A stretch of DNA of 64,000 nt from a virus. Its lineage: Duplodnaviria; Heunggongvirae; Uroviricota; Caudoviricetes. The stretch spans positions 30,417 to 94,416 of IMG/VR virus record IMGVR_UViG_3300034072_002212; one strand, 5' to 3'. The position numbers and the translations under genes were made by a program. The notes below the pieces were generated by a model. That model was not told the DNA's origin, searched no databases, and saw only the letters and a list, made by a program, of their open reading frames with translations. This document shows, piece after piece, positions 4,346-38,195 of this stretch (position 1 is the stretch's first letter; each line of letters begins with the position of its first letter).

Positions 4346-5602
4346 TTACTCATTCACCGCCTTGGGGTCAAAAACGACCAGCGGCTCACTCTTTCCTTCG
4401 ATGACATCCTTGGTCACACGTACGGTAGTCGCTCCCTGCTCCTTGAGGTCAGGAAGTTCATACTGGACCTTGATCAGACGCTTCTCAATCACGCTGCGGA
4501 GACCGCGGGCGCCTGTCTTACGGGTGATGGCATCCTTGGCAACTGCGCGAAGAGCTTCTTCGTCAAACTCCAGTGTGACGTTCTCCATCTGGAACATCTT
4601 CTGGAACTGCTTGACGAGGCTGTTCTTGGGCTCGGTGAGAACCGTAACCAGCTGAGTTTCGTCGAGTTCTTCCAAGTGCGTGATGACCGGGAGACGACCA
4701 ACCAGCTCAGGAATCAGACCGAACTTGGTGAGATCTTCAGGCTCAACAGTGGCAAGAAGCTTGCTGTTGTCCTTCTTCTCAGCTTCGCTCATCACACTGG
4801 CACCAAAGCCCATGCTGCCCTTGCCCTTGTTCTGACGCTTTGCGATGATCTCGTCCAGACCAACGAATGCGCCACCAACAATGAACAGGATGTTCTTGGT
4901 ATTGACCACAGCCATCTCCGCGTTGGGATGCTTGCGGTTACCAGTGACTGGGACGCGGACTTCGCTACCCTCAATGATCTTCAGCAGAGCCTGCTGAACA
5001 CCTTCACCCGAGACGTCACGGGAAATGCTCGCCGAGTCGCCGCGCTTGGCCTTCTTATCTACCTCGTCGAGGTAGATGATACCACGCTCTGCCTTGGCAA
5101 CATCATTGTCGCAGACCTGCAGGAGGCGCGTGATGATGGTCTCCACGTCATCGCCCACATAACCCGCCTCAGTGAGGCTCGTAGCGTCAGCGATGGTGAA
5201 GGGAACGTCCAGCAGCTTTGCGATGCTGCGGGCCATCAGGGTCTTACCGGAGCCCGTAGGGCCCAGCAGGAGGATGTTGGACTTCTCGAGCTCAACATCA
5301 TCGACAACCGGATTGGCGAGACGCTTATAGTGATTGTGGACGGCCACACTCATGACCATCTTGGCTGCGTCCTGACCAATAACATACTGATCCAGGAACT
5401 CACGAATCTGTCGTGGGCTGGGAATACCACCATCCTTGAGAGACATCTTGGTCTCTGCGTTGGTGTCTTCCTTGAGAATGTCCGCGCAAAGCTGGACGCA
5501 ATCGTTACAGATGAAAACATCTGGACCGGCGATCAATTTCTGGACTGCTTCCTGTGGCTTTCCGCAGAAGCTGCAGGTCAGATTTTTCTTCTTGTCACTC
5601 AT
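4346..5602 (-). CDS. clpX: ATP-dependent Clp protease ATP-binding subunit ClpX
   Basis: N-terminal C4 zinc finger (CSFCGK...CNDCV), Walker A GPTGSGKT and 418 aa length are all typical of ClpX. Confidence 0.9.
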
Positions 5603-13641: not shown

Positions 13642-14994
13642 ATGACCCAAGAAAATAGCTCAAACTATATCCTAGACACTTCCCGCGAATATTCCATCTA
13701 CGTTTGTGAATCCCGCGCAATTCCCAAGGTCGCAGACGGCCTCAAGGACGCGCAGCGCAAGGCGCTTTGGCTTGTTAAGAGCCGATCGGACAAGATCAAG
13801 ACGGTGTCCCTCGCAGGCGAGATGATCTCCTCGGGACTCTATCTGCACGGTGACCAGTCAGCAGCTGGTGCTATCTCGATGCTGGCCGCTCCCTACGTCA
13901 ACAACGTGCCCTTGCTTGAGGGTATTGGTTCGTTCGGCACGCGCGTTGCGCCAGTCGACGGTATCGGTGCTCCTCGTTACACCTACGTCAAGCGCGGCAA
14001 AGCTGCTCAGGAACTCATGTTCCCCGACATGGACATTGTTCCGGTCAAGGAGAACTATGACGGGTCAACGATTGAGCCTCAGCACTTCCTCCCACTTATC
14101 CCTACGGTGCTCTTAAACGGCGTCTCAGGCATCGCAGTGGGTTGGAGCACCGAGATCCTACCTAGGTCCTTCAAGGCCCTCGTTGATGCCACGCTGAACG
14201 TCCTAGACGGCAAAAAGCTGAAGCGCATTGCTCCCAACTACGAGCTCTACAACGTGGGCGTCAGCCACCTCGAGGACAACTCGTGGGAGTTTCAGGGCAA
14301 GCTGGAAATCGTCGACACGTCGACCATTAAGATCACTGAGCTGCCACCCGAACTGACCCTCGAGAAGTTCAAGGAACGCCTGAACACGTTTGAAGACGAG
14401 AACAAGATCTCGACCTATATCGACCGTTCCACTGATACCATTGACATCACGATCAAGATGGCTCGTGGCTCGGTCAAGGGTTGGAGCGTCACTCGCGCCA
14501 TCGACTACTTCAAGCTCAAGCAGAAGAAGACCGAGCGCATCGTTGTCATCGACTGGAACGGCTCTTCGATCCGCCAGTATGAGAGCGCAGAGAAGCTTAT
14601 TGAGGACTTCGTTGCGTGGCGCTTGGGTTGGTATGAGACCCGCTACCAGAACAAGGTCAACAAGGACGACTACGAGCTAGGCTTCTGGAAGGGCGTCAAG
14701 CTTTGCTTCGACGACAAGCTGCCAGCACGCCTGGGCACAATCAAGAGTCGCACTGAACTGGATGCTGATGTCCAGGCTGTCACTGCCAAGCTCAAGCTGG
14801 ACGACAAGCGCGTTGATCGCATCGTGAACTTGCCGGCTCACCGTTGGACCAAGGATGCCTATGCTGATGTTCTCCAGAAGATCAAGGATCTGGAAGCAAA
14901 CATCAAGGAATACAAGGCCATCCTCAAGGATCCTGAAAGGCGAAAGGCCATCTACCGGGAAGAGGTAGAGGCCTTGAAGAAGGTTAAGTTCTAA
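13642..14994 (+). CDS. DNA topoisomerase II medium subunit (T4 gp52-like, GyrA-like breakage-reunion domain)
   Basis: IPKVADGLKDAQRKALW (compare IPDVRDGLKPVQRRILY), active-site tyrosine context APRYTYV, 450 aa. Confidence 0.85.
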   Translation: MTQENSSNYILDTSREYSIYVCESRAIPKVADGLKDAQRKALWLVKSRSDKIKTVSLAGEMISSGLYLHGDQSAAGAISMLAAPYVNNVPLLEGIGSFGTRVAPVDGIGAPRYTYVKRGKAAQELMFPDMDIVPVKENYDGSTIEPQHFLPLIPTVLLNGVSGIAVGWSTEILPRSFKALVDATLNVLDGKKLKRIAPNYELYNVGVSHLEDNSWEFQGKLEIVDTSTIKITELPPELTLEKFKERLNTFEDENKISTYIDRSTDTIDITIKMARGSVKGWSVTRAIDYFKLKQKKTERIVVIDWNGSSIRQYESAEKLIEDFVAWRLGWYETRYQNKVNKDDYELGFWKGVKLCFDDKLPARLGTIKSRTELDADVQAVTAKLKLDDKRVDRIVNLPAHRWTKDAYADVLQKIKDLEANIKEYKAILKDPERRKAIYREEVEALKKVKF

Positions 14995-15000
14995 GACAAT

Positions 15001-15022
15001 GGGGAGGGTCTAGACCCTCCCC
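15001..15022. terminator. Bidirectional terminator hairpin between convergent genes
   Basis: Perfect palindrome GGGGAGGGTC-TA-GACCCTCCCC, then ATTTCCTTT on the plus side. It sits between the gp52-like stop (14994) and the minus-strand stop (15030). Confidence 0.6.
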
Positions 15023-15029
15023 ATTTCCT

Positions 15030-16274
15030 TTACTCGTCGCCGTTGATCGGCACCTCACAATACTTGGTCTTGAGGGTCAGCAGGTATTGCGTGACCTTCT
15101 CGGGCATGTCCGTGTGGCTCTGCCGGTCAGGACCCGTGTTGTTGGACCCATAGTAGTAACCACGGCTCTGGGGCTGGGTGCTCACAAACTCCTTGTCGTT
15201 CTCGATTTTATCCTTGTCGTAGGAGTGAATCCAGACCTTATCGAAGCCGTTGCGGTTGTGCCGCACCGTGTCGTGATACTGCTTCATCGAGAACGCGCAC
15301 CAGCGACCATTCTGCCCCGGCATCTCACCGAAGAAGACACCCTCAGGACGCTTGCTTGCGACCGCGAAGTCTTCCTCGGTGATGGTGAGGATCAGGTCAC
15401 TTTTTTTTAGAGCCTCCGAGGAAACCGCGACCACGTAGCCGTCGGAATAGGCGTTCTCGTTCACGCACGAGCCATAGTTGCGGCCCTTGCGATACTTGAT
15501 GATCGCCTCATTGATCTCCTTCTCCGCAGCTTCCTGCGTGAGGGTACCGTCGCCCTGTTCGACTTCGGCAATCTTCGGGGTCGCGATCGAGCGCCACTCG
15601 CCCGCGCCATGGCCGCTGGTCACCTTGAACAGGAACCGCTTCTTGTCGCCGAAGTTCTGATTGATGCCGTTGTGGCCGTAGCGCGCATGGGCGAGGAAGA
15701 AGTAGCCGTAGAAGATGCCCTCGTCACCATTCTGCATGATGATCTTGTCGCCCAGCTTGACCTCGCTGGGCTTGACCTTCTTGGCGGCGCGCTCGGTGTT
15801 GGCCTGTGCCGCTCGGTAGGCGTCGCTGTCCACTGGGACCAGCACGTTCTCAGAGCCGAGCCGGCCCCAGATAAGCTGTTCCTGGATCTCGCCCTTCTCC
15901 ATGGTGCAGAGCATCAGGATCTGTGCGAAGTTGGAACTGCTGATCTCGAGCTCGAACCCACGCGGGTCCTCGATGCGCCACTTGACGTTGCCGTTGCCGA
16001 AGCTCGCATAGCGGCGAACTTCGCGCGACAGCTTGAAGCCGACCATGGGCTTGTTCTCATAGGTCACCGCAGGCGGCACGTCCTTGGTCTTGCCGTAGCC
16101 ATAACCCTGTGCCCACTGGTCCACCGTTGCCTTGCGCTTGACTGCCGCGGCATCGGTGCCATCCGGGGTCATGAAGCCCAGCGGCGTATTGTCCTGCGTG
16201 GGACGGCTCTGGAAACCCACGTAGTGGTGGGACGGGAACTTGATAGCCTTGTTGTCTGCTTCGATTTTGCTCAT
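15030..16274 (-). CDS. Hypothetical protein (414 aa)
   Basis: Long clean ORF. No motif recognised. Confidence 0.5.
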   Translation of the reverse strand: MSKIEADNKAIKFPSHHYVGFQSRPTQDNTPLGFMTPDGTDAAAVKRKATVDQWAQGYGYGKTKDVPPAVTYENKPMVGFKLSREVRRYASFGNGNVKWRIEDPRGFELEISSSNFAQILMLCTMEKGEIQEQLIWGRLGSENVLVPVDSDAYRAAQANTERAAKKVKPSEVKLGDKIIMQNGDEGIFYGYFFLAHARYGHNGINQNFGDKKRFLFKVTSGHGAGEWRSIATPKIAEVEQGDGTLTQEAAEKEINEAIIKYRKGRNYGSCVNENAYSDGYVVAVSSEALKKSDLILTITEEDFAVASKRPEGVFFGEMPGQNGRWCAFSMKQYHDTVRHNRNGFDKVWIHSYDKDKIENDKEFVSTQPQSRGYYYGSNNTGPDRQSHTDMPEKVTQYLLTLKTKYCEVPINGDE

Positions 16275-16286
16275 TCGATCGCCCCT

Positions 16287-16523
16287 TTATCGGCTTTGGA
16301 GTTTCAGATACATGGCATAGCGGCGCTCGATCTTTTCGATCGCCTCGAGGTAGGGCTTTGCCGCTTCCTCCGCCGCAGCCTTTTTGGCGGCGTTCATTTC
16401 CAGCTTGAGTGTCTGGATTTGATCCCACATGGCCGTGATGGCCGAACCCTCGCTCAGAATCTCCTGTTCGGTGGACTCTGTGCTCTTCATCAGTTGCTTG
16501 CGGATATCCGCCAGAATGCTCAT
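16287..16523 (-). CDS. Small coiled-coil protein (78 aa)
   Basis: Ala/Glu/Lys-rich helical sequence. Translationally coupled to its upstream gene. Confidence 0.4.
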   Translation of the reverse strand: MSILADIRKQLMKSTESTEQEILSEGSAITAMWDQIQTLKLEMNAAKKAAAEEAAKPYLEAIEKIERRYAMYLKLQSR

Positions 16524-16975
16524 GCGTAGTTGACCTCAAAGCCACACTGGCGCAAGAGATCGATGCCCTGCATCATCTTGCGTTCCCAGACCATGGGCTG
16601 TTCGTTGCGTTCAAATTGGGTGAGCTCGACCACTTGGGTCAAGAGTTCTGCGTCCTCGACCACCTTCTTGGCCTGCGCTAGGCCGAAACCGGTCATAGCA
16701 CGGACCTCCTTGATCGCTTTGATCTTGAAGGAGACGTCATTGGAGCCTGCGCGATAACGCTCGGGATCAACGAGGCGGAAGGAGATCTTGTTGGTGGTCT
16801 GGTAGGTGCCCGAGAGCTTGTGGAGGATTACTCTATCCTTCCACGCTTTGCCCATAGGGCCCTCGAGAGCAGCCATGACCTCGGCGGACTTGTCAGCACC
16901 CATGGATAGCTTGACGGCCCGCAGAAACTGCTGGCTGATCTCGTCAAGCAACTGGGTATCTGGTTCGCCGTTCAC
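16520..16975 (-). CDS. Protein with a ribosomal L7/L12 C-terminal-domain-like region
   Basis: KIKAIKEVRAMTGFGLAQAKKVVEDAELLTQVV...GFEVNYA matches the L7/L12 CTD ([35 protein letters not shown]...GAEVEVK). The N-terminal ~80 aa are unrelated. Confidence 0.5.
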   Translation of the reverse strand: MNGEPDTQLLDEISQQFLRAVKLSMGADKSAEVMAALEGPMGKAWKDRVILHKLSGTYQTTNKISFRLVDPERYRAGSNDVSFKIKAIKEVRAMTGFGLAQAKKVVEDAELLTQVVELTQFERNEQPMVWERKMMQGIDLLRQCGFEVNYA

Positions 16976-17075
16976 GCTGCCTCCTGTTACCCTGTCACAT
17001 CTATACTCTAGGTGTCACCTGTCAACCGTCCAGATAAGTATTGTATTGAAAAGGAGACTTTGCTAGACAGAACGA

Positions 17076-17672
17076 ATGCCTTGGACTTTTGAACAGAGGA
17101 TCCAAAGGGCGTGTAATGCGCTGGTAGATCGTAGCTTGCTAGAGGAGTCGCAGATCGAGACCCTCCGCAGACCGCTCTACTTTGGGCATTTTGCCTATGG
17201 CGTTGGCTTGTCGCTGAACCTGGCACATTGGGGTGATTGGATTCATGTAAAGGACATGATTCTCAAGGGCCTCGAGCGCATGGATGCGACCCTTCAGAGC
17301 AATCAACGCACCTATCAGTTCAATGCCTTTAGTAGTGATCCGGCGATGCTTCGCTGGTTTATTCAGCATCAGTCCATGTTCGCATTCAACCATGTCCGCA
17401 TCGTCGATCGATCGTGCTGGCACCTTGCCCTCCCTAAACCTCGCCCCAAGGCGAAGTTCTATGGAGAGTATGGCTGGCGCTTTGAGTTTAAGAATCCCAA
17501 GTGGGGTTTGGAAGCGGACAATGTTGCCGAGTTGGAGAAGCTATCTGGCCCAACCAAGTTGGTAACCTATCCTCGAACCTTTCTCTACTTGGATAAGCTC
17601 TCAGACGTCCTGATGTTCAAACTCATCGTGGGCGAGCAACTGTTGAGCTTGGATGACCGACACGAACTTTAG
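17076..17672 (+). CDS. FKLTWGG-family protein, long solo member (198 aa)
   Basis: C-terminal region YGWRFEFKNPKWG...YLDKLSDVLMFKLIVGEQ carries the family signature. AAAAGGAGA lies upstream of the ATG. Confidence 0.5.
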   Translation: MPWTFEQRIQRACNALVDRSLLEESQIETLRRPLYFGHFAYGVGLSLNLAHWGDWIHVKDMILKGLERMDATLQSNQRTYQFNAFSSDPAMLRWFIQHQSMFAFNHVRIVDRSCWHLALPKPRPKAKFYGEYGWRFEFKNPKWGLEADNVAELEKLSGPTKLVTYPRTFLYLDKLSDVLMFKLIVGEQLLSLDDRHEL

Positions 17673-18372: not shown

Positions 18373-18912
18373 TTAGCCGTAATAAACAGCCGAGTTCGCA
18401 CCATGCTCAAAGCACTCAACAGACACGAGGCGCACGTCTGGGTTCACATTGTAGCGACCCAGCTTGCCGGCCTTCATCTCTTCCAGCATCTCGACGCTCT
18501 TCTCGTAAACGAGCTTCGCGGTCAGCTCACAGCCAACGCCGGGAACGATGCGGAGATTACAGACGCGGCCTTCCTCATAGAGACCAACTTCCTTCTCAGT
18601 GGGCACGCCATTGAGTTCTGGGTTCAGCGAGAACGCTGCTAGGGTCTTGAAGGTTTCGAGTGCGGGATCATCCTCGGCCACCAGGATCGTGTGGTCGAAC
18701 ATATGGTCGAGGAAGTTCTTGATGGGCTTCATACCACCAAAGTCAAAGCACCAGTTCTTCTCGTCCAGAGTCTCAGACTCCCAGACAAACTTGAAACCCA
18801 GGCTATAGCCGTGGAGCGTTGAACAGTGCGAGTGATTGGCCTTCCACTGACGGAAGCAGCAAGAGAGACCACGGTCGGTGCCGTAGGTCTTGGTCGATTG
18901 GAATTTAGGCAT
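18373..18912 (-). CDS. queD: 6-pyruvoyl-tetrahydropterin synthase / QueD-family protein
   Basis: FRQWKANHSHCSTLHGYSLGF and DFGGMKPIKNFLDHMFDHTIL parallel the QueD zinc and catalytic motifs (AAHRL..C..LHGHS; DFAELK...LDHHYL). Confidence 0.6.
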   Translation of the reverse strand: MPKFQSTKTYGTDRGLSCCFRQWKANHSHCSTLHGYSLGFKFVWESETLDEKNWCFDFGGMKPIKNFLDHMFDHTILVAEDDPALETFKTLAAFSLNPELNGVPTEKEVGLYEEGRVCNLRIVPGVGCELTAKLVYEKSVEMLEEMKAGKLGRYNVNPDVRLVSVECFEHGANSAVYYG

Positions 18913-18969
18913 TTTCTGCTCTCATTCTTGCGACGCAGAATCTTTAGAGAGGGTTGAGTCGTTGTCCTC

Positions 18970-19419
18970 TTGCTATTTATCTACGATATTCTGGTTATTG
19001 CCCGCAATATAGACATCACCAGAATGTCACTCTATATGGATCACATGACCCGAGGACTCACTAAGGAGGATAGCGAGCTATGGACTCGCGTAACCAAGGA
19101 CGTTAGGCCCCTTGGCAAAGCCCCTGTGAGCTCCTCTGAGGGTCAGAGCTACCCGAGAGCACCCGAACCCCGTAGCGCACCCTATAACCCACGAGTGGAC
19201 CTCCACGGGGTAACAATCCATGAAGCATGGGGTGTGGTCAACGACCACATCTATCATGGGGTACAGAACGGCTATAAGAAGCTGCTCATTATCACTGGCC
19301 GCTCAGGCCAGATCAACCAAGAACTTCCGCGCTGGCTTGAGCGCAACCCGCACGTCAGATCGGTTACACAGATGCCAAACGGTGGTTCATGGGAAATAGC
19401 AATCAAGCCCGTTACGTAG
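18970..19419 (+). CDS. Smr (small MutS-related) domain protein
   Basis: VDLHGVTIHEAWGVVNDHIY...LLIITGRSGQ...LPRWLERNPHVRSV matches the Smr core. The true start may be an internal Met (about 19024). Confidence 0.55.
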   Translation: MLFIYDILVIARNIDITRMSLYMDHMTRGLTKEDSELWTRVTKDVRPLGKAPVSSSEGQSYPRAPEPRSAPYNPRVDLHGVTIHEAWGVVNDHIYHGVQNGYKKLLIITGRSGQINQELPRWLERNPHVRSVTQMPNGGSWEIAIKPVT

Positions 19420-19653
19420 ACGCTGACAAACTCAAGATGGCGCTTTATTCGCTCCATCCCGCAGTTGGAGCATCATATTCTAGCGGGCTGTTGGACCAGC
19501 AGGTCAATCAGCTGATTCTCAACGCTCTCACGAACTCCTTTGAGTCGTTCAAGCATCAGCTCATAAATGCCATTGATCAGGCGTCAGTGCCCTACGACAA
19601 GTGTATGCTTTGCGTCCAGCGAGACTCCTGCATCCCGCCTGATCCCCGACTGC

Positions 19654-20013
19654 CTAGTTGAGCCGGATCTCGATGTCACCACCCTCGGTCTTGAGATATT
19701 TCATAACCTCGAGGCCATAATCAGTGAACGTGTAGAGCTCACGCTTACCCGTGATGGTCGTTGAATCCCAGACATAATCCCAAGAGTATTCGATCAGACC
19801 CACGTCCTGAAGACGCTTGAGGTCTTTGACCTGGAAGCCCTTGCACAACTTCGCCACTTCACTGACAGTCAGAACCGTCTTCTCGCCCGGTTCAGCGGCC
19901 AGCTTCTTCATCACAAGCTTGGAGTTCATAGCCTTGAGGAAGGTGTGAGCCGGCGACCCTTCGCAGATCACCGCATAGTTGTGGCCGTCGATAACTTCGA
20001 TGTCGTACATCAC
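19654..20013 (-). CDS. Hypothetical protein (119 aa), last gene of the cca–family operon
   Basis: ORF only. No family motif. Confidence 0.4.
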   Translation of the reverse strand: MMYDIEVIDGHNYAVICEGSPAHTFLKAMNSKLVMKKLAAEPGEKTVLTVSEVAKLCKGFQVKDLKRLQDVGLIEYSWDYVWDSTTITGKRELYTFTDYGLEVMKYLKTEGGDIEIRLN

Positions 20014-20018
20014 CTACC

Positions 20019-20321
20019 TCAGAACTTCTGGTGCGCCTTACAAGCAAGTTCGCCACCGAAAGTCAACTTGAAACGCACCGCATCTGAACGGTTTTCAAAA
20101 GACAGGTTGTGTGGTGCCATGGTATAATCCACCGAATAGCAACCTGTGGTGTGGTTGTTCAGCCAGTCATAGTCAGCATCCGTGAGTGGACGCGTCAGTC
20201 CAACACGGTGGGTATAATACTTGAGGGACTGGCGATGCGGATGGCGAATGCTCTCGAGACGGGCCTTGTTCTTGCCCGTGAATTGGAGGATCTTGGCCTC
20301 GATCTGCTTGAGCTTCTTCAT
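20019..20321 (-). CDS. FKLTWGG-family small protein
   Basis: W-box DYDWLNNH. C-terminus FENRSDAVRFKLTFGGE. Confidence 0.55.
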   Translation of the reverse strand: MKKLKQIEAKILQFTGKNKARLESIRHPHRQSLKYYTHRVGLTRPLTDADYDWLNNHTTGCYSVDYTMAPHNLSFENRSDAVRFKLTFGGELACKAHQKF

Positions 20322-20581
20322 AGGAAAGACAGTTTGAACATTGCCGCATGGGCGGGATTGGAAAAGAAGATGCGTGTTCCTCTGTCCCTATTTACGCTAT
20401 GCCAGTTGTTGGCAATGATGTAATGGTCCTTGTCACCACTGTAGGGTTCGCTGTCGGGGTGGCGGAACTGCTGGATTCCCACAAAGGTCTCCAACCAACG
20501 CTCAGCTTCCTCGGTTAGCTTGACACTACCGCTCTGCTCCCAAACGCGATCGTTGAGTTGAGGAACCTCAATCGGTGTCAC
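20318..20581 (-). CDS. FKLTWGG-family small protein
   Basis: C-terminus FFSNPAHAAMFKLSFL. Overlapping start/stop with both neighbours. Confidence 0.5.
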   Translation of the reverse strand: MTPIEVPQLNDRVWEQSGSVKLTEEAERWLETFVGIQQFRHPDSEPYSGDKDHYIIANNWHSVNRDRGTRIFFSNPAHAAMFKLSFL

Positions 20582-20865
20582 GCAAAGGTCAGCTTGAACA
20601 GAGCCGCAAGGTCTGCGCGATCCTTGGGAAAGAAGAACGTTGTGATGTCCGGCTCGTCTGAACTGTTGCTCGACAACACAGTGAGACCGTGGCGCTTGTA
20701 GAAGTCCTCAATCTCGGGACCTGCGACCCACTGGAAAGTGTCCTCCCCAGTGGATCGCTTCGTGAAGTGCGCCTTGCCCTTGATGTCTACACCCATGGAC
20801 TCAGCTTGCTTCTGTTTGATGCTCTCCCAGAGAGCTTCATAGGCCGAATGGCGAGGATCGGTCAT
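20578..20865 (-). CDS. FKLTWGG-family small protein
   Basis: W-box DTFQWVAGP. C-terminus FFPKDRADLAALFKLTFA. ATG overlaps the cca stop (TAATG). Confidence 0.5.
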   Translation of the reverse strand: MTDPRHSAYEALWESIKQKQAESMGVDIKGKAHFTKRSTGEDTFQWVAGPEIEDFYKRHGLTVLSSNSSDEPDITTFFFPKDRADLAALFKLTFA

Positions 20866-21998
20866 TACTCGATCTCCAGCAGTTCTTCCTTGGTCTTCGT
20901 GAAGCGCGAGAACACCCAGGCATTCTCCAGCTTACGCAGACGCTGCCCCATAGCCGGCCCCGGCTTCATCCCCGAAGCCAGCAGGTCCTTCCCCGTTACC
21001 GGGAACGTCGGGACCACAAAGTTGCGGGCGTATTCAGCCAGCATCGGTTCCCCGGCGATCTCCAGCATGGACACGACATGATCCAGAGGGAACTTGTCGC
21101 GGGTCAGGTAGATCTCGACCTTCTCCTCGGTCCAGTTCACGCACCGGTTGCGGATCAGGTTGCGGACCTTGGCCTCTTCGGCCGAGCTCAGCTTCCAGAA
21201 CTGGAAGAACTTTTCCTCGTCGGTACTGGCCACCAGCGTCGACAGTGCCGCGACCGCATCATCCGAACGCGCCAGCTCAACAGGGTTGAACCGGAAGACT
21301 CCCAGCGAACGGTTGACGCGCGTCTTGAACATCGCGTCGACCACCCGAACCCGAGCCGGCATCGAGGGATCCAGCAGCTTTGACATTTCCAGCCAGAACC
21401 GCTCGACCGACACGACGTTCAGCTTGTCCAGGGTCTCGCCCACGCTGAACAGGTCCAGCGTGTCGTCGTCCATGGTCGCATCGAAGCGCGCCGCAAAGCG
21501 GAAGTAGCGCAGGATACGCAGGTAGTCCTCCTGGATTCGCAGCTCTGCGATCCCGACGAAACGGACGACCTTGTTCTTCAGGTCATCGCGTCCGCCAAAG
21601 TAATCGTAGACGTTGCCCTCGAAGTCCATCGACATTGCGTTGATGGTCAGGTCGCGCCGCTCTGCGTCCAGCTCGAAGGAGCGGGTGAACTCCACGGTCG
21701 CATGACGCCCGTCGGTCTCTGCGTCGATCCGCAGCGTGGTGACCTCGAACGGCTCCTTGTTGACCACGATGGTCGCCGTGCCGTGTGCGATGCCGGTTTC
21801 GATGAAGCCGAACTTGTTGGCCGTTGCGATCTCGCGCATCTCTTCCGGCGTTGCGTCGGTGCAGAAGTCCACGTCCTTGGGGACCACGCCCAGGATCGCG
21901 TCACGGACACAGCCACCCACGAAGCGGATCTCGAAGCCGGCGGCCTTGAAGGCATCGCCCAGCTTGCGCGTTTCCGTGGTCATCAGCTTGTCCAGCAC
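20865..21998 (-). CDS. cca: tRNA nucleotidyltransferase (CCA-adding enzyme) / poly(A) polymerase family
   Basis: Head-domain motifs GGCVRDAILG...DVDF and 377 aa length. Confidence 0.8.
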   Translation of the reverse strand: MLDKLMTTETRKLGDAFKAAGFEIRFVGGCVRDAILGVVPKDVDFCTDATPEEMREIATANKFGFIETGIAHGTATIVVNKEPFEVTTLRIDAETDGRHATVEFTRSFELDAERRDLTINAMSMDFEGNVYDYFGGRDDLKNKVVRFVGIAELRIQEDYLRILRYFRFAARFDATMDDDTLDLFSVGETLDKLNVVSVERFWLEMSKLLDPSMPARVRVVDAMFKTRVNRSLGVFRFNPVELARSDDAVAALSTLVASTDEEKFFQFWKLSSAEEAKVRNLIRNRCVNWTEEKVEIYLTRDKFPLDHVVSMLEIAGEPMLAEYARNFVVPTFPVTGKDLLASGMKPGPAMGQRLRKLENAWVFSRFTKTKEELLEIE

Positions 21999-22057
21999 GT
22001 CGATCTCCTCTTTGTTACAAGGCGAGATCTAACACCAATTTGGTGAGTGTCAACCAG

Positions 22058-22633
22058 TCAGGATAGATCTTCTGGGTCTATGGATGAGTTGGCCACCTTT
22101 TTGGCAAACCGCTCATCCTTTTTGCGTTGGATCTCAGCAAAATGCTCTCTGATCTCATTGACCACGACATTCCATTCAGGCTTCACATAGAGCAAAATGG
22201 CGATCTTCCAGATAAAGGCCGCACGAGCATCTGCTCGCTTCTCTTTGACTTTGACCTTGCGCTGCTGGAGTGAAGCCGCCTTCATCTTCACGTAGACCCG
22301 CCATGCCTCGGGATCACGCCGCAGCTTGAGGAACTTGTTGAACTTCATGTCCCCACGCAGGTTATTACACCCTGAGCAGCTCATGACGAGATTGCTCAGG
22401 TGGTCAGTGCCACCTTTGCCCTGACACAGAACATGCTCCAACGTGGCGCGACGATTGTTGGAAATTGGTGTGTCGCCGGGTAACCAAGTCTGCTTGCCAC
22501 AGAAATAGCAGAGACCGCCTTGCTTGTGGAACAGCTGAGTGGTCTTCTTGCGCCGGGCCAACGTGAACTTGGTGTACCACCACTCCTTGTCCTCAGGAGT
22601 GTGCCACTTCTTACGAACCGCGCGGCCTACCAC
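22058..22633 (-). CDS. HNH endonuclease
   Basis: CYFCGK...LEHVLCQGKGGTDHLSNLVMSCSGCNNLRG is an HNH motif with zinc-binding cysteines. The 277-aa ORF has a Ser-rich low-complexity N-terminus that looks non-coding. A GTG start at 22633 is proposed. Confidence 0.5.
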   Translation of the reverse strand: MVGRAVRKKWHTPEDKEWWYTKFTLARRKKTTQLFHKQGGLCYFCGKQTWLPGDTPISNNRRATLEHVLCQGKGGTDHLSNLVMSCSGCNNLRGDMKFNKFLKLRRDPEAWRVYVKMKAASLQQRKVKVKEKRADARAAFIWKIAILLYVKPEWNVVVNEIREHFAEIQRKKDERFAKKVANSSIDPEDLS

Positions 22634-22847
22634 CTTTGTGTAGCTGGTCCCATCCGAGGAACGACCAGGCCTTGCGCTTGGCACTGTGGCAAAGTCGAAG
22701 GGGAATGACAAAGATGAGAGCGAGGAGGAAACCGATGGTAGCGAGGATGCGACCAATGAAGCCACCGGTGCCCTTGACACTGAATATGACGATGAGCAGG
22801 ATGAAGAGGAGCAGATCCCCTCGCTTGCTTCGGTTACTTGACCACAT
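22611..22847 (-). CDS. Small two-TM membrane protein (78 aa)
   Basis: MWSSNRSKRGDLLLFILLIVIFSVKGTGGFIGRILATIGFLLALIFVIPL has two strongly hydrophobic helices. It lies in the frame overlapping the HNH ORF's Ser-rich extension. Confidence 0.4.
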   Translation of the reverse strand: MWSSNRSKRGDLLLFILLIVIFSVKGTGGFIGRILATIGFLLALIFVIPLRLCHSAKRKAWSFLGWDQLHKGGRPRGS

Positions 22848-22877
22848 TGCGGCGCCTCCATAATTTCGCGCAATAGG

Positions 22878-23096
22878 TTACTCGCCACCAAATGTCAACT
22901 TGAACAATAGGGCGTGCTGCTTTTCCCGGAAGGCGAATGGGATTTTGTCCTGGGTCTGCCCACCGAAGCGGAAGTCCAAACCAATCTTCAGCTTGTGGTC
23001 AGCCATCCATGTAAAGATGGCGTTGATCGAGTTGCGTGAGGAAACGTGGACCTCATGCCAGTTCAGGAGACTAACGATAGCCATCGAACAATCCAT
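22878..23096 (-). CDS. FKLTWGG-family small protein, solo copy
   Basis: W-box IFTWMADHK. C-terminus FAFREKQHALLFKLTFGGE. Confidence 0.5.
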   Translation of the reverse strand: MDCSMAIVSLLNWHEVHVSSRNSINAIFTWMADHKLKIGLDFRFGGQTQDKIPFAFREKQHALLFKLTFGGE

Positions 23097-29137: not shown

Positions 29138-30343
29138 TTAGCGAGCTGCCAGCTGAGCCTGCCGGTTGGCTGCGCTGAGCAGCGTTTCCTTGAGCTTCTG
29201 CTCGGCGCCCTGGAGCGCCACTTCGGCCGCAGCGCGCTTGGCCTTGCCCTGCTCCGCGAGGTCGATGCTCTCGTTGATCGTCGAGATCAGGTATTCGTTG
29301 GCCTCGACCGCCGCCTCGACGTCGAAGATACCACGCTCCATTTCCGTCCGGGTGATCCGGTTGGTCTCGTTGATCTGCTTCGCGCTGGCGACCAGCAGTT
29401 CGTTGGTGAAGTCGGTCGCGGCCTTGCTGGCCTTGCCGGCTTCCGCCGCGCGCCATGCGGCGATCTGAACCGCCATCGTGCGCTTCCAGAGGGGAACGGC
29501 CGTCAGGATCTGCGTCTGGATCTTCTCGGCCATGCCCTTGTCGTTGGCCTGGACGATGCGGATGCTGGGCAGCGCCTGGATGGTCACGTTGCGGGTCAGC
29601 AGCAGGTCAGCGCGCTTGCGCTCCAGCGAATCGCGCGCTTCGATCATGTCGCGCACTTCCTGGGTGTCGGCCATGTCCTGCGTCTCGTTGGCCTTTGCCT
29701 GGAGCCGCGGGATCTCGACGGTGTTGACCTCGTTGAGCAGCCACTCGACCGCCGCGATCTGCTCGTCGAGCGAATCCAGCAGGCCCAGCGTGGCCTCGTA
29801 TTGCTTGTCCAGCGCAACGATGTCCTTGAGCATCTGAACGCGATGACCCTCGAGCACGTTGGTCGACTTGATGATCTGCGCTTCGACCGTCTGATACTTG
29901 TCCAGGAACTTCTGGAGAACCGACGCGCCGCCGAACAGCTTCTTCAGGAAGCCAGGCTTCTTGCCCGCTGCCAGCTCACCAAAGTCCAGACCCTTCATGT
30001 CGCGCACCATCAGATTCAGCGCATCGCCGGCCGGACCCGTGTCCTTGGTGCGGACTCCCTGAAGCATCTGCTCCGAGACCTGAGTGGTCGCCTTCTGAGC
30101 TTCGACGCCGAAGGTGATGATCGACTGGCTGTCCTTGAGGTTGATCTTGCTGGCGAGCTCCTTGGCGCGCTCCGGCGAGATCTTGCGCGGCGCGCGTCCG
30201 GCGGCATTGTTGAGCGAGACGATTTCCTGCGAGCCGATCTCCGGCACGATCAGGGCATTGTCCGCCTGTGGGGTCGGGAGGAGTTCGCCGGTCAGAGACG
30301 GGGTTGCCGTCGCCGTGCCGACCTTGGTAGGATCAGTCGCCAT
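29138..30343 (-). CDS. TelA-like (toxic anion resistance / KlaB family) protein
   Basis: 401 aa, helical throughout, with a TelA-like organisation. An XpaC-like gene is adjacent, as in the Bacillus yaaN–xpaC operon. Confidence 0.55.
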   Translation of the reverse strand: MATDPTKVGTATATPSLTGELLPTPQADNALIVPEIGSQEIVSLNNAAGRAPRKISPERAKELASKINLKDSQSIITFGVEAQKATTQVSEQMLQGVRTKDTGPAGDALNLMVRDMKGLDFGELAAGKKPGFLKKLFGGASVLQKFLDKYQTVEAQIIKSTNVLEGHRVQMLKDIVALDKQYEATLGLLDSLDEQIAAVEWLLNEVNTVEIPRLQAKANETQDMADTQEVRDMIEARDSLERKRADLLLTRNVTIQALPSIRIVQANDKGMAEKIQTQILTAVPLWKRTMAVQIAAWRAAEAGKASKAATDFTNELLVASAKQINETNRITRTEMERGIFDVEAAVEANEYLISTINESIDLAEQGKAKRAAAEVALQGAEQKLKETLLSAANRQAQLAAR

Positions 30344-30348
30344 AGTGT

Positions 30349-31008
30349 TCAGATTCCCTCGTTCTGGAGACGGTTGTTCATGACCGTCATGTTCACGTCA
30401 AAATCCATGACGTCGTTGGACAGAAGCTTGTCGAGCAGCTTCTGAAAGTTGATCTCGATGGTGTCGAGCATTTCGTCGAACTTGGCCATCTGCTTCTGCG
30501 CCTCGAGGCTGCGCGAACCAGTGCGGCTCAAATGCGCGTAACCCTTGACCAGCGTGATAGTCTCGTCCAGGTAGCTGTTGAGCCAGCTCTGTGCAAGGAC
30601 CACGTCCTTGGGGTCGACGTGGAAGTCTTCGATGATCTTGCGACCGATGGCATCAATGTGCTTGATGCGCCGAACCGTGTTGGGGCTCTTGATCTGGGCG
30701 GCTTCCATGAGGATGCGGTCCAGCTTGTCGCTGCCCATCTTGATTGCTTCGACGACCAGCTTGGTGTCAACACCCGAGGTGCCGGCCGCGATGTCGTCGA
30801 TATGCTTGTGAAGAGCGCGGATGTCGTCAGCCGTTACGGGCTTGCGACCAGGCCAGAAATACCAGATGCCCGATCCTGTGAGTAGCGCCAGCGGCGCGCT
30901 GATCAGGATATCACCGATGAAGCCCGTGGGCAGAGCGGCCATGCCGCCGATGAAAACACAAGCGGCTCCTCCCAGCGCAGCCGCCTTACTCACTAGACTA
31001 TTTGCCAT
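30349..31008 (-). CDS. XpaC-like membrane protein (tentative)
   Basis: N-terminal TM segments followed by a helical cytoplasmic domain. Positioned next to TelA as in the Bacillus yaaN–xpaC pair. Confidence 0.35.
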   Translation of the reverse strand: MANSLVSKAAALGGAACVFIGGMAALPTGFIGDILISAPLALLTGSGIWYFWPGRKPVTADDIRALHKHIDDIAAGTSGVDTKLVVEAIKMGSDKLDRILMEAAQIKSPNTVRRIKHIDAIGRKIIEDFHVDPKDVVLAQSWLNSYLDETITLVKGYAHLSRTGSRSLEAQKQMAKFDEMLDTIEINFQKLLDKLLSNDVMDFDVNMTVMNNRLQNEGI

Positions 31009-31129: not shown

Positions 31130-32869
31130 TTATTCAGCGTCGGGATGAATCCCTGCCAGCCGCTGAAGTTCCTCACGCTCGTCGGCCGGGAGAGGCTCGT
31201 CGCGCACCCGGCGGGGCTTGGGGGCCGGAACCGCCTTGGCCACCGGCGCATCACCGTTGCCGGTGATCGGAGCCGAAAGACCATCGACCACACCCGACAT
31301 GCCCTTGCTCAGGTCAATGCCAAGTTCCTTGGCCAGCTCGTCCACGAAGGGAGCCTGGAGCCGGTAGCCCAGCAGAGCGTCAGTCATCTGGCCGGGCAGA
31401 CCGTTACCGCCGTTTCCCGAGGTCTCGCCCTCCTCACCGCCGAAGGTGCGACCGCCACCGATGCCGCCGTTCATGTGAACAACGCGGAAGCTGTCAATCT
31501 TCTCGATGGGCTTGCCCATCTGCTCGAGGATCTCAGGCAGCTTGTCGATGAGCTTGAGGCGGATCTGCAGCGCAGCCTGCTCAGGGCTCATGAGGTTCGC
31601 AGCTTCGTTCAGCGCCCGCTGACCCTCGGCCTCAACCTCGTAACGACGTGCGTCTGCCTCGACTAGGCGCTCCTTGGCCTTGGCGCTGGCGTCAGCTGCC
31701 GCGAGCTCAGCTTCCGCACGGATGCGGATACCAGCGGCCTCTTCCTGTGCCTTGGTCTCGGCCGCGATGACCGCAACCTTCTGGTCACGCTGGGCGCGCG
31801 CTTCGGCCTCAACGGTCTTCACCGCTTCAGCAGCCGCGACCGCAGTCGCGCGGGCTTCGTCAGCCTTGGCACGAGCAGTCGACTCTTCCTCGGACTTCTG
31901 GGCGACCGCAATGCGCGATGCCTGTGCCGCAATCTCGAGAGCCTGTGCGGCCTCGGTCTCTGCGACCTGAATCCGGCGCTTCTGCTCGACACGCGCTGCC
32001 TCGGTGGCCTGGTTGGCCTCGATTTCAGCGATGTCAGCTTCGCGAGTGCGCTCAGCGCGGATCTTCGCAAGACTAGCAGCCTGCTCGGCGCGCTGGGTCT
32101 CGACCTGACGCTCCTGCTCCAGGGTTGCGAATTCGTCCTGCTGCTTGATTTCGAGCGAACGCTTGTTCGCCTCGAAGTTCTTCTGCTCGATGGCGACGCG
32201 GTTGTCGGCCTCGATTTCGTTGCGCTCCTTGCGGCGGGTCTCGGTCACGCTCGTGAGCTTAGCCAGACCTTCAGCGTCGAACGCATTGTTGGGGTTGAAG
32301 TGCTCGACCGACGTCTGGTCCAGACCGGTCAGCGAGACCGATTCCAGTTCCAGACCGTTCTTCTTCAGGTCTTCAGCCGCTGTGGTCTGGACCTGCTTCA
32401 CGAAGTCGGCCCGCTTCTCATGAAGGTCCTGCATGTCCATGCCCGCCGCAACAGCGCGCAGAACGTCGACGAACTTGCCTTCAATCAGCTCAGCGAGCTG
32501 CTGGGGGTTGGTCGTCCGCTTACCCAGGGTCTGCGCCGCTGCCGCGATGCTTTCCAGATCCGGCGACACACGAACGTAGAACTCAGCCTTCACGTCAACG
32601 CGCAGGCGGTCCTTGGTGATCAGCGAGTCCTTGGCCTTGCGATCGACGGTGAGGCGCAGGGTCTGCATATTGATGTCCACAGTCTCGTGGAACACCGGCA
32701 GAATCAGAGCACCGCCGTCCTTGACGACCTTCTGACCGCCCATACCCGTGCGGACGAATGCCATTTCCTTGGACGCTCGCTTATAAAGCTGCGTCATGAA
32801 GAAGACAATCACACCAAGGACGACAACCGCCCCCAGGATGATCGCCCCAATAAAGGTGAGATTATCCAA
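31130..32869 (-). CDS. Flotillin / band-7 (SPFH) protein, YqiK-like
   Basis: N-terminal TM, SPFH core (ILPVFHETVDINMQTLRLTVD...) and a very long A/E/K/R coiled coil. 579 aa. Confidence 0.75.
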   Translation of the reverse strand: MDNLTFIGAIILGAVVVLGVIVFFMTQLYKRASKEMAFVRTGMGGQKVVKDGGALILPVFHETVDINMQTLRLTVDRKAKDSLITKDRLRVDVKAEFYVRVSPDLESIAAAAQTLGKRTTNPQQLAELIEGKFVDVLRAVAAGMDMQDLHEKRADFVKQVQTTAAEDLKKNGLELESVSLTGLDQTSVEHFNPNNAFDAEGLAKLTSVTETRRKERNEIEADNRVAIEQKNFEANKRSLEIKQQDEFATLEQERQVETQRAEQAASLAKIRAERTREADIAEIEANQATEAARVEQKRRIQVAETEAAQALEIAAQASRIAVAQKSEEESTARAKADEARATAVAAAEAVKTVEAEARAQRDQKVAVIAAETKAQEEAAGIRIRAEAELAAADASAKAKERLVEADARRYEVEAEGQRALNEAANLMSPEQAALQIRLKLIDKLPEILEQMGKPIEKIDSFRVVHMNGGIGGGRTFGGEEGETSGNGGNGLPGQMTDALLGYRLQAPFVDELAKELGIDLSKGMSGVVDGLSAPITGNGDAPVAKAVPAPKPRRVRDEPLPADEREELQRLAGIHPDAE

Positions 32870-35676: not shown

Positions 35677-37428
35677 CTAGCCATTCTTGGATGCGAGTTC
35701 GTTCACAACCATGTGATTGAGGTCAGAGATCCTGTAGGGCTTGCCTAGCACCTTGATCTTATGACTGCGGTCTCGCTTGAGCTCCCTAAGGGCCACTTCA
35801 GCATGACCTGTGGTGAAGATCACGGGTAAATCCGGACGGATATTGCTGGCAGCTTTGGCAAGCTGGAAACCATCAATGCCATTGGGCATCACAACGTCGG
35901 TGAACAATAGGTCAATGGGAATGTCGAGATTCTGAATGATCTCCAGTGCGCTTTTGCCATCTTGTGCGCTCAGGACATTGTAGCCCATTTCCATCAAAGC
36001 CTGCGCTGCGAGCTCTCTGACGCCGGGCTCGTCATCTACCACAAGAATGCTGGCCTTGGTAGCGTCGTAGTTGAAGTCTTCCTCGTCCCGCGTTTCTTCG
36101 ACCGTTTCTCCGGCTGTGTAGGGGAAGAGCATCTCTACGGTTGTTCCCTTGCCCAACACGCTGTCAATGAAGACCTTGCCGTTGCTCTGCTGACAGAAGC
36201 CATAGACCATGGAGAGACCAAGCCCACTACCCTTGCCCACGTCCTTGGTCGTGTAGAATGGTTCAAAGGCCCGTTCTTTGGTTTCCTGAGTCATGCCTTC
36301 GCCAGTATCACTGACGCTGACACTCACAAAGCGCGTGTCGTCAATGGAACGGTTTTGTGTCTTAATACAGATCCGACCACCATTGGGCATTGCGTCTCTG
36401 GCGTTGATGCCAAGGTTGAGAATAGCACTCTCGAGCTGTGATTTGTCGCTCAAGCAAAGCCAGACGTCTTCCTGGAGATCAATCTCAACAGGAATACTAA
36501 CACCGACCGCCCGCTGGACCATTTCCTGGACGCCAACGACGACCTCGTTGACGTTCAGTCGCTCGGGATGGAGTCGCGATTTACGAGAGAACGCAAGCAA
36601 TTGGCTCGTGAGCTTTTCTGCCTTGAGGGCGGCCTCGATCGCCATGGAAGTCTGACGTTCAATACGCTTTGCCACGGAGTTGTCTGGCAAGTTGGCCAGA
36701 CTCATCTTCGAGAGCTCGAGGTTCCCGATGATCACTGTGAGCATGTTGTTGAAATCGTGCGCGATACCACCGGTCAACTGCCCAACGCTCTCCATCTTTT
36801 GTGCCTGGCGGAGAGCATCCTGTGTTTTCTGCCGCTCTTCAATCTCTTGAAGGAGGCGCTCATTTGCTTCCTCGAGCTCTTGAGTGCGTTCGCGGACTTT
36901 GGTCTCTAGCAGTTCGTGAGCGTGGATAGATTCTTCCTGAGCCATTTTGAGCTCATGAATTATTGAAGCAACACCCAGCCATTTTACGAGGTTTTCGTTA
37001 TCATCCTTGATGGCTCGAGTGGTTGCACGGAACCAGCGATATTCTCCGTCATGTCGACGAATGCGAAACTCGGCTTCGTATGCTAACCCCTTGACATAAT
37101 GCTCTTCCATTGCCAGACGAATTACTGCTATATCGTCGGGATGAATGCATGTCTTCCAAAGATAATCATCATCAAGGGAGTATTTTACTCCCGTGAATTC
37201 AAACCAAAAATTATTGAGATAGGTGAGATTTCCCTGATCGTCTCGGGTCCAGATAATTGTCGGCGCAAGATCTGTGAGCATCTTGATATTGATGTCAGAT
37301 TTGATCGCCTTATCCACAAAACCCTCATCGCCCACTCCGCAGACAAGAAGACCTTGGGGTAATGGCCTACCTCCGGTCTGTCGCTTTGGCATCGAGAACC
37401 CCTTTAGAAGCGTAACGAATAGAACCAA
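35677..37428 (-). CDS. Hybrid sensor histidine kinase (PAS – HisKA – HATPase – receiver)
   Basis: H-box IAHDFNNMLTVI; ATPase DTGEGM...GSGLGLSMV; C-terminal receiver ILVVDDEP...DLLFTDVVMP. Uses a TAG stop. Confidence 0.8.
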   Translation of the reverse strand: MVLFVTLLKGFSMPKRQTGGRPLPQGLLVCGVGDEGFVDKAIKSDINIKMLTDLAPTIIWTRDDQGNLTYLNNFWFEFTGVKYSLDDDYLWKTCIHPDDIAVIRLAMEEHYVKGLAYEAEFRIRRHDGEYRWFRATTRAIKDDNENLVKWLGVASIIHELKMAQEESIHAHELLETKVRERTQELEEANERLLQEIEERQKTQDALRQAQKMESVGQLTGGIAHDFNNMLTVIIGNLELSKMSLANLPDNSVAKRIERQTSMAIEAALKAEKLTSQLLAFSRKSRLHPERLNVNEVVVGVQEMVQRAVGVSIPVEIDLQEDVWLCLSDKSQLESAILNLGINARDAMPNGGRICIKTQNRSIDDTRFVSVSVSDTGEGMTQETKERAFEPFYTTKDVGKGSGLGLSMVYGFCQQSNGKVFIDSVLGKGTTVEMLFPYTAGETVEETRDEEDFNYDATKASILVVDDEPGVRELAAQALMEMGYNVLSAQDGKSALEIIQNLDIPIDLLFTDVVMPNGIDGFQLAKAASNIRPDLPVIFTTGHAEVALRELKRDRSHKIKVLGKPYRISDLNHMVVNELASKNG

Positions 37429-37564: not shown

Positions 37565-37768
37565 TAAAGAAAGCTAAAAGGCCCGTCCTGTTCCGCGGTG
37601 GAGCCCATACCGGTTTGGCAAACCCTAAGGGTTAAGCCGCAACTGCCATTGCTGGCTCGTTGTCGTTGACATTTCTGTCGTTGGCCTTTTCGGATCCGAA
37701 GATCCCAGGGAACCACCCCTCGTTGTCTCTCGCAGCCGTTCGCGCACACGTCGATCCTGGTTCGGCCC
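37565..37768 (-). ncRNA. ssrA: tmRNA coding piece (5' acceptor strand, tag reading frame, post-stop helix)
   Basis: 5' end GGGGCCGAACCAGGAUCGACG at 37768. Resume codon GCC at 37684-37682. Tag stop UAA at 37633-37631, followed by the AACCC-UUA-GGGUU hairpin. Confidence 0.6.
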
Positions 37769-37815
37769 CTTGCTTCAGGATTGCTCCCGATAAGGTTTCC
37801 AGTATTGCCACCTGG

Positions 37816-37880
37816 TTGGTGGAGCCGGCGGGTACTGCCCCCGCGTCCGCTGATTGCTATTGAGCTTTGGTCATCAACAA
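37816..37880 (-). ncRNA. ssrA: tmRNA acceptor piece (T-arm + 3' acceptor strand + CCA)
   Basis: The 3' end ...GCGGG-GGCAGUA-CCCGC-CGGCUCC-A-CCA lies at 37816. The last 12 nt (CCGGCUCCACCA) match the E. coli tmRNA 3' terminus. Confidence 0.6.
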
Positions 37881-37887
37881 CCCCGCC

Positions 37888-37916
37888 TTTATAGCGCGCT
37901 CGTAACCAAATGTCAA
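37888..37916 (-). promoter_or_regulatory. Sigma70-like promoter TTGACA-N17-TATAAA(GG) driving the tmRNA locus
   Basis: -35 at 37916-37911 and -10 at 37893-37888 on the minus strand, immediately after the PAAR stop codon. Confidence 0.5.
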
Positions 37917-37919
37917 CAG

Positions 37920-38195
37920 CTATCCTACAAAAACGTCGCTGCTGCCTTGTGCAACCTTGCTACCACAGGCCACGGGGTCAGATAACCTGCCCTGTCCGCG
38001 TCCATTGACGAAGACTGTGGATGATCCCCTAGCCAAAACACTTGGATGACCACTATGTGGTGCCCATTTATCGCCTTGCCTGTGAGCCGGCTTGCCGTTG
38101 ATAAAGACGTCAGGGCTTCCCTGAACGTTTGGACGTGGAGGAGCGCCGGGATGGCCCGTGCATTTGTCTCCCATACGGGCCGCTGGCTTACCCAC
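37920..38195 (-). CDS. PAAR-repeat protein (spike-tip, T4 gp5.4-like)
   Basis: N-terminus (M)GKPAARMGDKC...HPG...VFINGKPAHRQGD...VFVNG are PAAR repeats. GTG start overlaps the upstream stop. Confidence 0.75.
   Translation of the reverse strand: MGKPAARMGDKCTGHPGAPPRPNVQGSPDVFINGKPAHRQGDKWAPHSGHPSVLARGSSTVFVNGRGQGRLSDPVACGSKVAQGSSDVFVG

Follow-up and report, generated by a model that had tools for sequence, protein, structure and literature searches.

A two-domain protein with a bL12-like C-terminal domain in a gene module of Phosso-like jumbo phages

Gene A and the two domains of its product

The window analyzed here, a stretch of 64,000 nucleotides from a Caudoviricetes virus (IMG/VR record IMGVR_UViG_3300034072_002212, positions 30,417 to 94,416), carries on its minus strand a run of three genes that we call A, B, and C, the first of which is the main subject of this study. 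Gene A (16520..16975, minus strand, defined from the list of open reading frames and the sequence) encodes a two-domain protein of 151 residues, with a GTG start codon at 16975 and a TGA stop codon at 16520-16522. Conservation of residues 6-20 among homologues supports this GTG as the start. A Shine-Dalgarno sequence, AGGAGG, read from the sequence, lies 4 nt upstream of it (16980..16985, minus strand), and AGGAG is kept at the equivalent place in related loci. Gene B (16287..16523, minus strand) encodes 78 residues from an ATG that overlaps the A stop codon in the sequence ATGA (16520-16523), and gene C (15030..16274, minus strand), located 12 nt 3' of B, encodes a beta-rich protein of 414 residues from a large phage family.

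Sequence and structure comparisons revealed that the A protein's C-terminal domain (CTD) is homologous in sequence and fold to the CTD of ribosomal protein bL12 (L7/L12). The bL12-CTD-like fold covers residues 63-151 (16523..16789, minus strand), with strands at residues 63-68, 114-117, and 146-150 and helices at 83-95, 99-111, and 127-143. The Pfam model Ribosomal_L12 (PF00542) matches residues 84-110 with an E value of 7.8e-8 and a score of 33 bits, which exceeds the curated 25.9 bits, and is matched in all 12 of the 12 close family members of A. These residues form the alpha4-alpha5 motif KIKAIKEVRAMTGFGLAQAKKVVEDAE (16646..16726, minus strand), which corresponds to positions 12-38 of the Pfam model and is also aligned by hhalign. 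In that comparison, the A family matches bL12 with a probability of 93% and an E value of 3.4e-7, the bL12 side consisting of four sequences. When the PDB was searched with a 42-sequence profile of the A family, the 15 best matches were all bL12 chains, the best one being 1dd3_A from T. maritima (E 3.8e-10), with an alignment spanning strand beta1 to helix alpha6 and thus nearly the whole CTD. The A family profile also matches EF-Ts from T. thermophilus (1aip_C) weakly, with an E value of 0.0016.

The AlphaFold2 (AF2) model of A, with a predicted local distance difference test (pLDDT) score of 82 and a predicted TM-score (pTM) of 0.59, displays residues 63-151 as a beta-alpha-alpha-beta-alpha-beta unit. 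A Foldseek search of A against viral models (BFVD) returned as its top match a protein named 'Ribosomal protein L7/L12, C-terminal [uncultured Caudovirales phage]', with a full-length alignment and an E value of 3.3e-7. The presence of an L7/L12-CTD-like module at 16520-16975, claimed in an earlier note made from the sequence, is therefore borne out by PF00542, hhalign, the PDB profile search, and AF2, with the gene on the minus strand, and both profile comparison and structure prediction give a fold that agrees with the L7/L12 CTD rather than an unrelated one. The note had also stated that the C-terminal 70 residues closely parallel the L7/L12 CTD. Although the domain is real, direct sequence similarity to E. 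coli bL12 extends over only about 30 residues in helices alpha4-alpha5 (17/34 identical), and in the rest of the CTD the bL12 likeness is detectable by profile and fold alone. The domain is also larger than proposed, starting near residue 63 instead of 84 and comprising about 89 residues instead of 70, with beta1-alpha4 and beta2-alpha6 loops that are longer than those of bL12.

The N-terminal domain (NTD, residues 1-62; 16790..16975, minus strand) is predicted to be a three-helix bundle followed by a short linker. AF2 places its three helices (8-25, 27-41, and 43-55) in the first 55 residues, whereas the bL12 NTD is a two-helix hairpin. Conserved positions of the NTD are W45, G42, and F17, partly in an 'LGKxW' motif, and among 42 relatives G42 and W45 are nearly invariant. 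The model of the bL12 NTD, Ribosomal_L12_N (PF16320), matched 0/12 family members at E<=10, and in the hhalign comparison of the A family with the bL12 alignment only alpha4-alpha5 was aligned and nothing in the NTD, in agreement with the earlier view that the N-terminal half is unrelated to bL12 and that no L10-binding NTD is obvious. The PDB profile search with the A family likewise gave no match for the NTD. A cryptic bL12 NTD was considered on account of a weak in-register phmmer segment shared with T. thermophilus bL12 (score -1.0), and was ruled out by Pfam on the 12 members and by hhalign. The two domains are connected by a linker of about 7 residues (GTYQTTN, 56-62) that contains no low-complexity stretch and no Ala/Gly/Pro hinge. 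The isoelectric point (pI) of A is 6.6 (family median 6.4), compared to 4.6 for E. coli bL12. Gene A is not adjacent to rplJ, which encodes uL10; its neighbors are the phage genes B and C and a topoisomerase gene. Since the PF16320 domain, the hinge, the acidic pI, and the uL10 gene neighbor are all missing, A is not a bL12 orthologue.

The A family and the A-B-C module

Close homologues of A number 11, with 50-99% identity, on contigs of up to 468 kb. The 99%-identical protein is encoded on a 468-kb metagenomic contig and others on contigs of 372-436 kb. Because the nearest distinct homologue is only about 60% identical, synonymous sites are saturated. DNA and protein searches with A against phage and plasmid collections returned nothing (tblastn against the phage collection, E<=0.01), and the homologue in Sinorhizobium phage Phosso was reached solely through synteny via gene C. 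This protein, gp509, aligns with both domains of A in hhalign (97.5%, E 6e-12) and is a true homologue. In Phosso-like jumbo phages, whose genomes are about 470 kb, A belongs to the core genes and is specific to that lineage.

Mapping conservation on an alignment of 42 two-domain relatives of A (mean identity 26%) shows that the alpha4/alpha5 hairpin is selectively conserved. Identity to the window protein is 54% in alpha4-alpha5, 15-30% in the other CTD segments, and 41% in the NTD, and helix alpha6 is poorly conserved in the family. The most conserved columns of the CTD are K103, I88, R92, K84, E107, K89, I85, L99, G145, and G98, with G145 lying outside the hairpin, and K84, I85, I88, K89, R92, L99, K103, and E107 are conserved in at least 90% of the relatives. 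According to the alignments, K103, I88, R92, K84, E107, K89, I85, L99, and G98 of A are equivalent to K84, I69, R73, K65, E88, K70, V66, L80, and G79 of E. coli bL12. Helices 4/5 of bL12 are reported by Kothe (2004), Diaconu (2005), and Helgstrand (2007) to contact helix D of EF-Tu, as well as IF2, EF-G, and RF3. Isolated bL12 also stimulates the GTPase of EF-G. The alignment thus supports the view that the best-conserved positions of the A CTD coincide with the bL12 residues that contact EF-Tu, EF-G, IF2, and RF3.

An exhaustive profile search with the A family gave 1116 matches at E<=0.001, about 40 of which are full-length two-domain relatives of 130-178 residues. Most of the other matches are non-ribosomal proteins in which whole bL12-CTDs or the alpha4-alpha5 hairpin alone occur 3-7 times in tandem (e.g., P0140, P0147, P0148, P0157, P0174, and P0226), and in several of these tandem-repeat proteins the copies follow a predicted transmembrane segment. 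P0140, with 953 residues, has six full bL12-CTDs fused to HEAT-like repeats. We know of no described function for such tandem proteins.

All 8 other lineages with a contig that extends as far as C (L002/L013, L014, L004, Phosso, L009/L010, L011, L016, and L017) have the genes in the order A-B-C, even where identity in A falls to 25%. The A and B reading frames overlap through ATGA in 6 of these 8 loci, by 8 nt in L016, and by 16 nt in L017. Among the shorter contigs, L018 contains A, B, and a truncated start of C, L012 (of the L011 lineage) contains A-B only, and L015 ends inside the open reading frame following A, where B was not detected; a B homologue follows A at every locus of sufficient length. 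The B product has the conserved motif Q-x-L-R/K-x-E-M-N-x-A-K-K-x-A-A-E-E-A-A-x-P-Y/F-L-E and no Pfam or PHROG match, and among cultured phages B is matched in Phosso alone. C is present in at least 340 other phage records, and A and B are absent from the 3 C loci inspected in those records. As these 3 loci lack them and B has its only cultured match in Phosso, A and B appear to be a clade-specific addition in front of C. The conserved start/stop overlap of A and B is a stronger sign of functional linkage than gene order. On the other side of A, a divergently transcribed gene of 198 codons (17076-17672, plus strand), whose product has no Pfam or PHROG match, is found beside A, at 34-88% identity, wherever a related locus is of sufficient length.

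Possible roles of the A protein

We tentatively propose, at somewhat less than even chances, that A is an off-ribosome factor-recruiting adaptor, with a CTD that would bind host translational GTPases and an NTD that would anchor it to the products of B and C. The CTD would interact with the G domain of these GTPases, with EF-Tu via its helix D and possibly with EF-G, IF2, or RF3. The three-helix NTD would attach to something other than uL10, the likeliest partners being the products of the co-transcribed genes B, which is translationally coupled to A, and/or C. A would then act as a 'stalk arm' separated from the ribosome, the adaptor through which a phage A-B-C module recruits factors. We infer factor binding because the alpha4/alpha5 contact face is selectively conserved, and likewise infer the identity of the factor, the contact of the NTD with B or C, and the consequence for host or phage. 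Since PF16320 and any NTD alignment are missing, the linker has 7 residues, and the pI is 6.6, A would not be a component of the stalk. Host factors would be the targets because no EF-Tu-like match was found in Phosso, which is not among the 88 phage records having one, and no EF-Tu-like GTPase was found in the window. The translational coupling of A to a gene of about 78 codons, followed by a gene of about 400 codons, in each lineage examined suggests that A works within a complex. The tmRNA, tRNA-Thr, and CCA-adding enzyme of the window also give the proposal a translation-oriented setting. A more elaborate and quite improbable version would make A-B-C a ribosome-independent platform, where the A arm captures a host GTPase, most plausibly EF-Tu, and passes it to C; such a platform might modify or shield the factor, or employ it as a cofactor supplied by the host.

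Several observations weigh against the adaptor proposal. Tandem alpha4-alpha5 hairpins occur in many non-ribosomal and membrane-anchored proteins, and the hairpin may be a module for interactions in general. At the position equivalent to E82 of E. coli bL12, members of the A family have Q, E, D, or A. The C product has no recognizable fold or function that would hint at a purpose of factor recruitment. In addition, the whole neighborhood (QueD, endolysin, the 198-residue protein gene, A, B, C, and topoisomerase) is syntenic in this phage lineage, so that the conserved A-B-C order is partly a matter of common descent. Finally, A diverges faster than its neighbors. Compared to L002, identity is 52% for A, 86% for B, 66% for C, and 83% for the 198-residue protein, and compared to L004 it is 50%, 90%, 80%, and 88%, respectively. 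Such fast divergence would fit host adaptation or a loosening of constraint outside the hairpin.

A general interaction module would open the way to a function outside translation, in which the hairpin is an ancient portable motif that binds B, C, or another host protein, its conservation reflecting that interface or folding. The many hairpin-repeat proteins are consistent with this explanation, which we nevertheless regard as rather doubtful: the partners defined for the hairpin by experiment, in the cases of bL12 and EF-Ts, are all translational GTPases, the exposed basic contact residues K84, K89, R92, and K103 are kept in addition to the hydrophobic core, and no ClpS sequence signal was found by Pfam or PDB profile. 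If the partners are indeed translational GTPases, soluble A could instead act, as the earlier note suggested, as a free decoy that competes with the stalk for them and, by keeping a factor bound, reduces or re-tunes translation in the host. The conserved factor-binding hairpin, the missing uL10-binding NTD and hinge, and the lack of any detected translational GTPase of the phage itself in Phosso or the window all fit a decoy. It is nonetheless unlikely, as a pure decoy needs no second domain, whereas that of A is conserved up to the near invariance of G42 and W45, and the conserved translational coupling to B is left unexplained. Titration would moreover need very high expression of A. Single contacts between a bL12 CTD and a factor are weak and transient, and EF-Tu is several-fold more abundant than ribosomes, which makes stoichiometric titration demanding; a variant in which A titrates a factor of low abundance, e.g., IF2 or RF3, is conceivable. 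The titrating decoy is not the best-fitting variant, and A would more likely serve its operon partners as an adaptor than act as a simple decoy.

A could also join host ribosomes and favor phage mRNAs or block factor entry, either by replacing a bL12 dimer on uL10 or with its CTD docked on uL11 and the GTPase-associated center. A has a complete CTD fold, the uL11 NTD is a natural docking site of the bL12 CTD (PMC3505967), and a different phage bL12-domain protein, that of Salmonella phage FSL SP-076, was seen in purified 70S ribosomes by one mass spectrometry peptide (PMC6375957). In the same study by Mizuno et al., however, a tagged viral bL12 protein failed as a handle for purifying ribosomes (PMC6375957). 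For A itself, the uL10 route is at odds with an NTD in which neither Pfam nor hhalign detects any likeness to that of bL12, with the lack of a flexible hinge, and with a pI that is not acidic, and the uL11 route with the poor conservation in the A family of helix alpha6, one half of the cleft that binds uL11. A ribosome-bound role thus seems very unlikely.

Phage bL12-domain proteins have been catalogued, but to our knowledge no mechanism is known for any of them. The A family is tractable in this respect, being small, with two clean domains and with CTD residues whose most conserved positions match the bL12 contacts with EF-Tu, EF-G, IF2, and RF3, and being represented by gp509 in Sinorhizobium phage Phosso, which is cultured together with its host S. 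meliloti. Off-ribosome GTPase binding by A, if true, would be a concrete case of a phage redeploying the stalk module and could give a functional clue to the widespread orphan C protein encoded two genes 3' of A. If the platform version is true, it would provide the first functional handle on the C family of at least 340 phage genomes. Should A bind no GTPase, the hairpin would best be seen as a motif for interactions in general, and caution would be needed where phage genes are annotated automatically as 'ribosomal protein L7/L12'.

Genomic setting and comparison with known systems

In the divergent intergenic region 5' of gene A lies a promoter-like element, GGTTGACA-N14-TATA (17002..17027, minus strand), and alignment of 7 related loci shows that the TTGACA upstream of A is invariant. 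The GGTTGACA sequence occurs 7 times in the window compared to 2.2 expected (at 2686, 8214, 17020, 17677, 22048, 24987, and 29090), in the recurrent form GGTTGACA-N5-9-CACCT-N5-8-TATAG/TTAGA. Six of the 7 copies are located about 40-60 nt 5' of an apparent start codon, and among the genes that follow them are the L12-like operon and the genes for the endolysin and the CCA-adding enzyme. This motif may act as a promoter. A standard promoter and terminator scan of 14800-17300 (sigma-70, 16-18 nt spacing) returned no sites; the canonical sigma-70 search misses the motif because its spacing is too short.

The carrier of gene A is a giant phage of soil or water Alphaproteobacteria, with Sinorhizobium phage Phosso (469 kb) as its nearest cultured relative and an identical local gene order. 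Phage-type genes in the window encode topoisomerase II subunits, a SleB-type endolysin, an HNH endonuclease, a ribonucleotide reductase, and a DnaB-like helicase, and its translation-oriented genes comprise tmRNA, tRNA-Thr, and the CCA-adding enzyme. The tmRNA (37577-37920, minus strand), missed by the ARAGORN scan, is of the alphaproteobacterial two-piece (permuted) type (RF01849, 84.3 bits, E 2e-21; RF04321, 84.7 bits), which points to an alphaproteobacterial host. An RNA/tRNA-related cluster at 18373-22891 contains QueD, an Smr protein, the CCA-adding tRNA nucleotidyltransferase, and the HNH endonuclease; the syntenic stretch of Phosso adds a polynucleotide kinase, and in XacN1 the C homologue adjoins an RNA ligase. 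The GC content is 0.59-0.62 between about 24000 and 32000, compared to 0.52-0.54 elsewhere, and this high-GC stretch, which includes TelA (29138-30343, minus strand) and a flotillin/SPFH protein (31130-32869, minus strand), may be a host-derived island. The window also encodes a hybrid sensor histidine kinase with PAS-HisKA-HATPase-receiver architecture (35677-37428, minus strand), a protein with four PAS domains (54370-56040, plus strand), and a ClpX homologue with ClpX zinc finger, AAA_2, and D2-small domains (4346-5602, minus strand). No link was found between this phage unfoldase and A, which is of a fold class shared with ClpS.

The likeness of A to ClpS is at the level of fold alone, and A was rejected as a ClpS protein since neither a PF02617 or other Pfam ClpS match nor a ClpS chain among the PDB profile matches was found at E<=10. 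The EF-Tu-binding hairpin motif of bL12 and EF-Ts was reportedly described by Wieden et al. in 2001. The hairpins of the two proteins are regarded as one 'EF-Tu-binding alpha-hairpin' (Alva 2015, PMC4739770), and A has this motif in common with the EF-Ts N-terminal domain. In EF-Ts, however, the hairpin sits in a UBA-like helical domain that precedes a nucleotide-exchange core, and neither is present in A. With bL12, A shares the beta-alpha-alpha-beta-alpha-beta CTD, the motif K-[IV]-x-x-I-K-x-x-R-x-x-T-G-x-G-L-x-x-A-K-x-x-V-E, and a C-terminal L-x3-G-x2-V. Unlike bL12, it has no dimerizing or uL10-binding NTD, no hinge, a near-neutral pI, two loop expansions in the CTD, and no rplJ-rplL context.

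The closest known systems are the phage bL12 domains already reported by Mizuno et al. (2019, Nat Commun 10:752, PMC6375957) in Ralstonia phage RSB3, roseophages DFL12phi1 and DSS3P2, and Salmonella phages FSL SP-058/076, the last of which supplied the ribosome-associated peptide mentioned above. These domains are stand-alone or part of larger proteins, in diverse contexts, with conserved factor-contact residues, and their authors speculated that such proteins are interfaces for translation factors (PMC6375957). A resembles them in being phage-encoded, in matching PF00542 with the factor-contact residues, in lacking the bL12 NTD, and in having an unrelated sequence fused to the domain in a non-ribosomal context, and the UniProt/BFVD entry A0A6J7WGF4, 'Ribosomal protein L7/L12, C-terminal', is of the same kind. 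The cultivated phages with bL12 in that study have genomes below 80 kb and are mostly N4-like or small podoviruses, whereas the A family belongs to Phosso-like jumbo phages of about 470 kb, and A differs from their proteins in that it has a distinct, conserved three-helix NTD and lies in a fixed A-B-C operon. A is a further case of the phage bL12-domain proteins already described, to which it adds a jumbo lineage, an NTD of its own, and the A-B-C operon.
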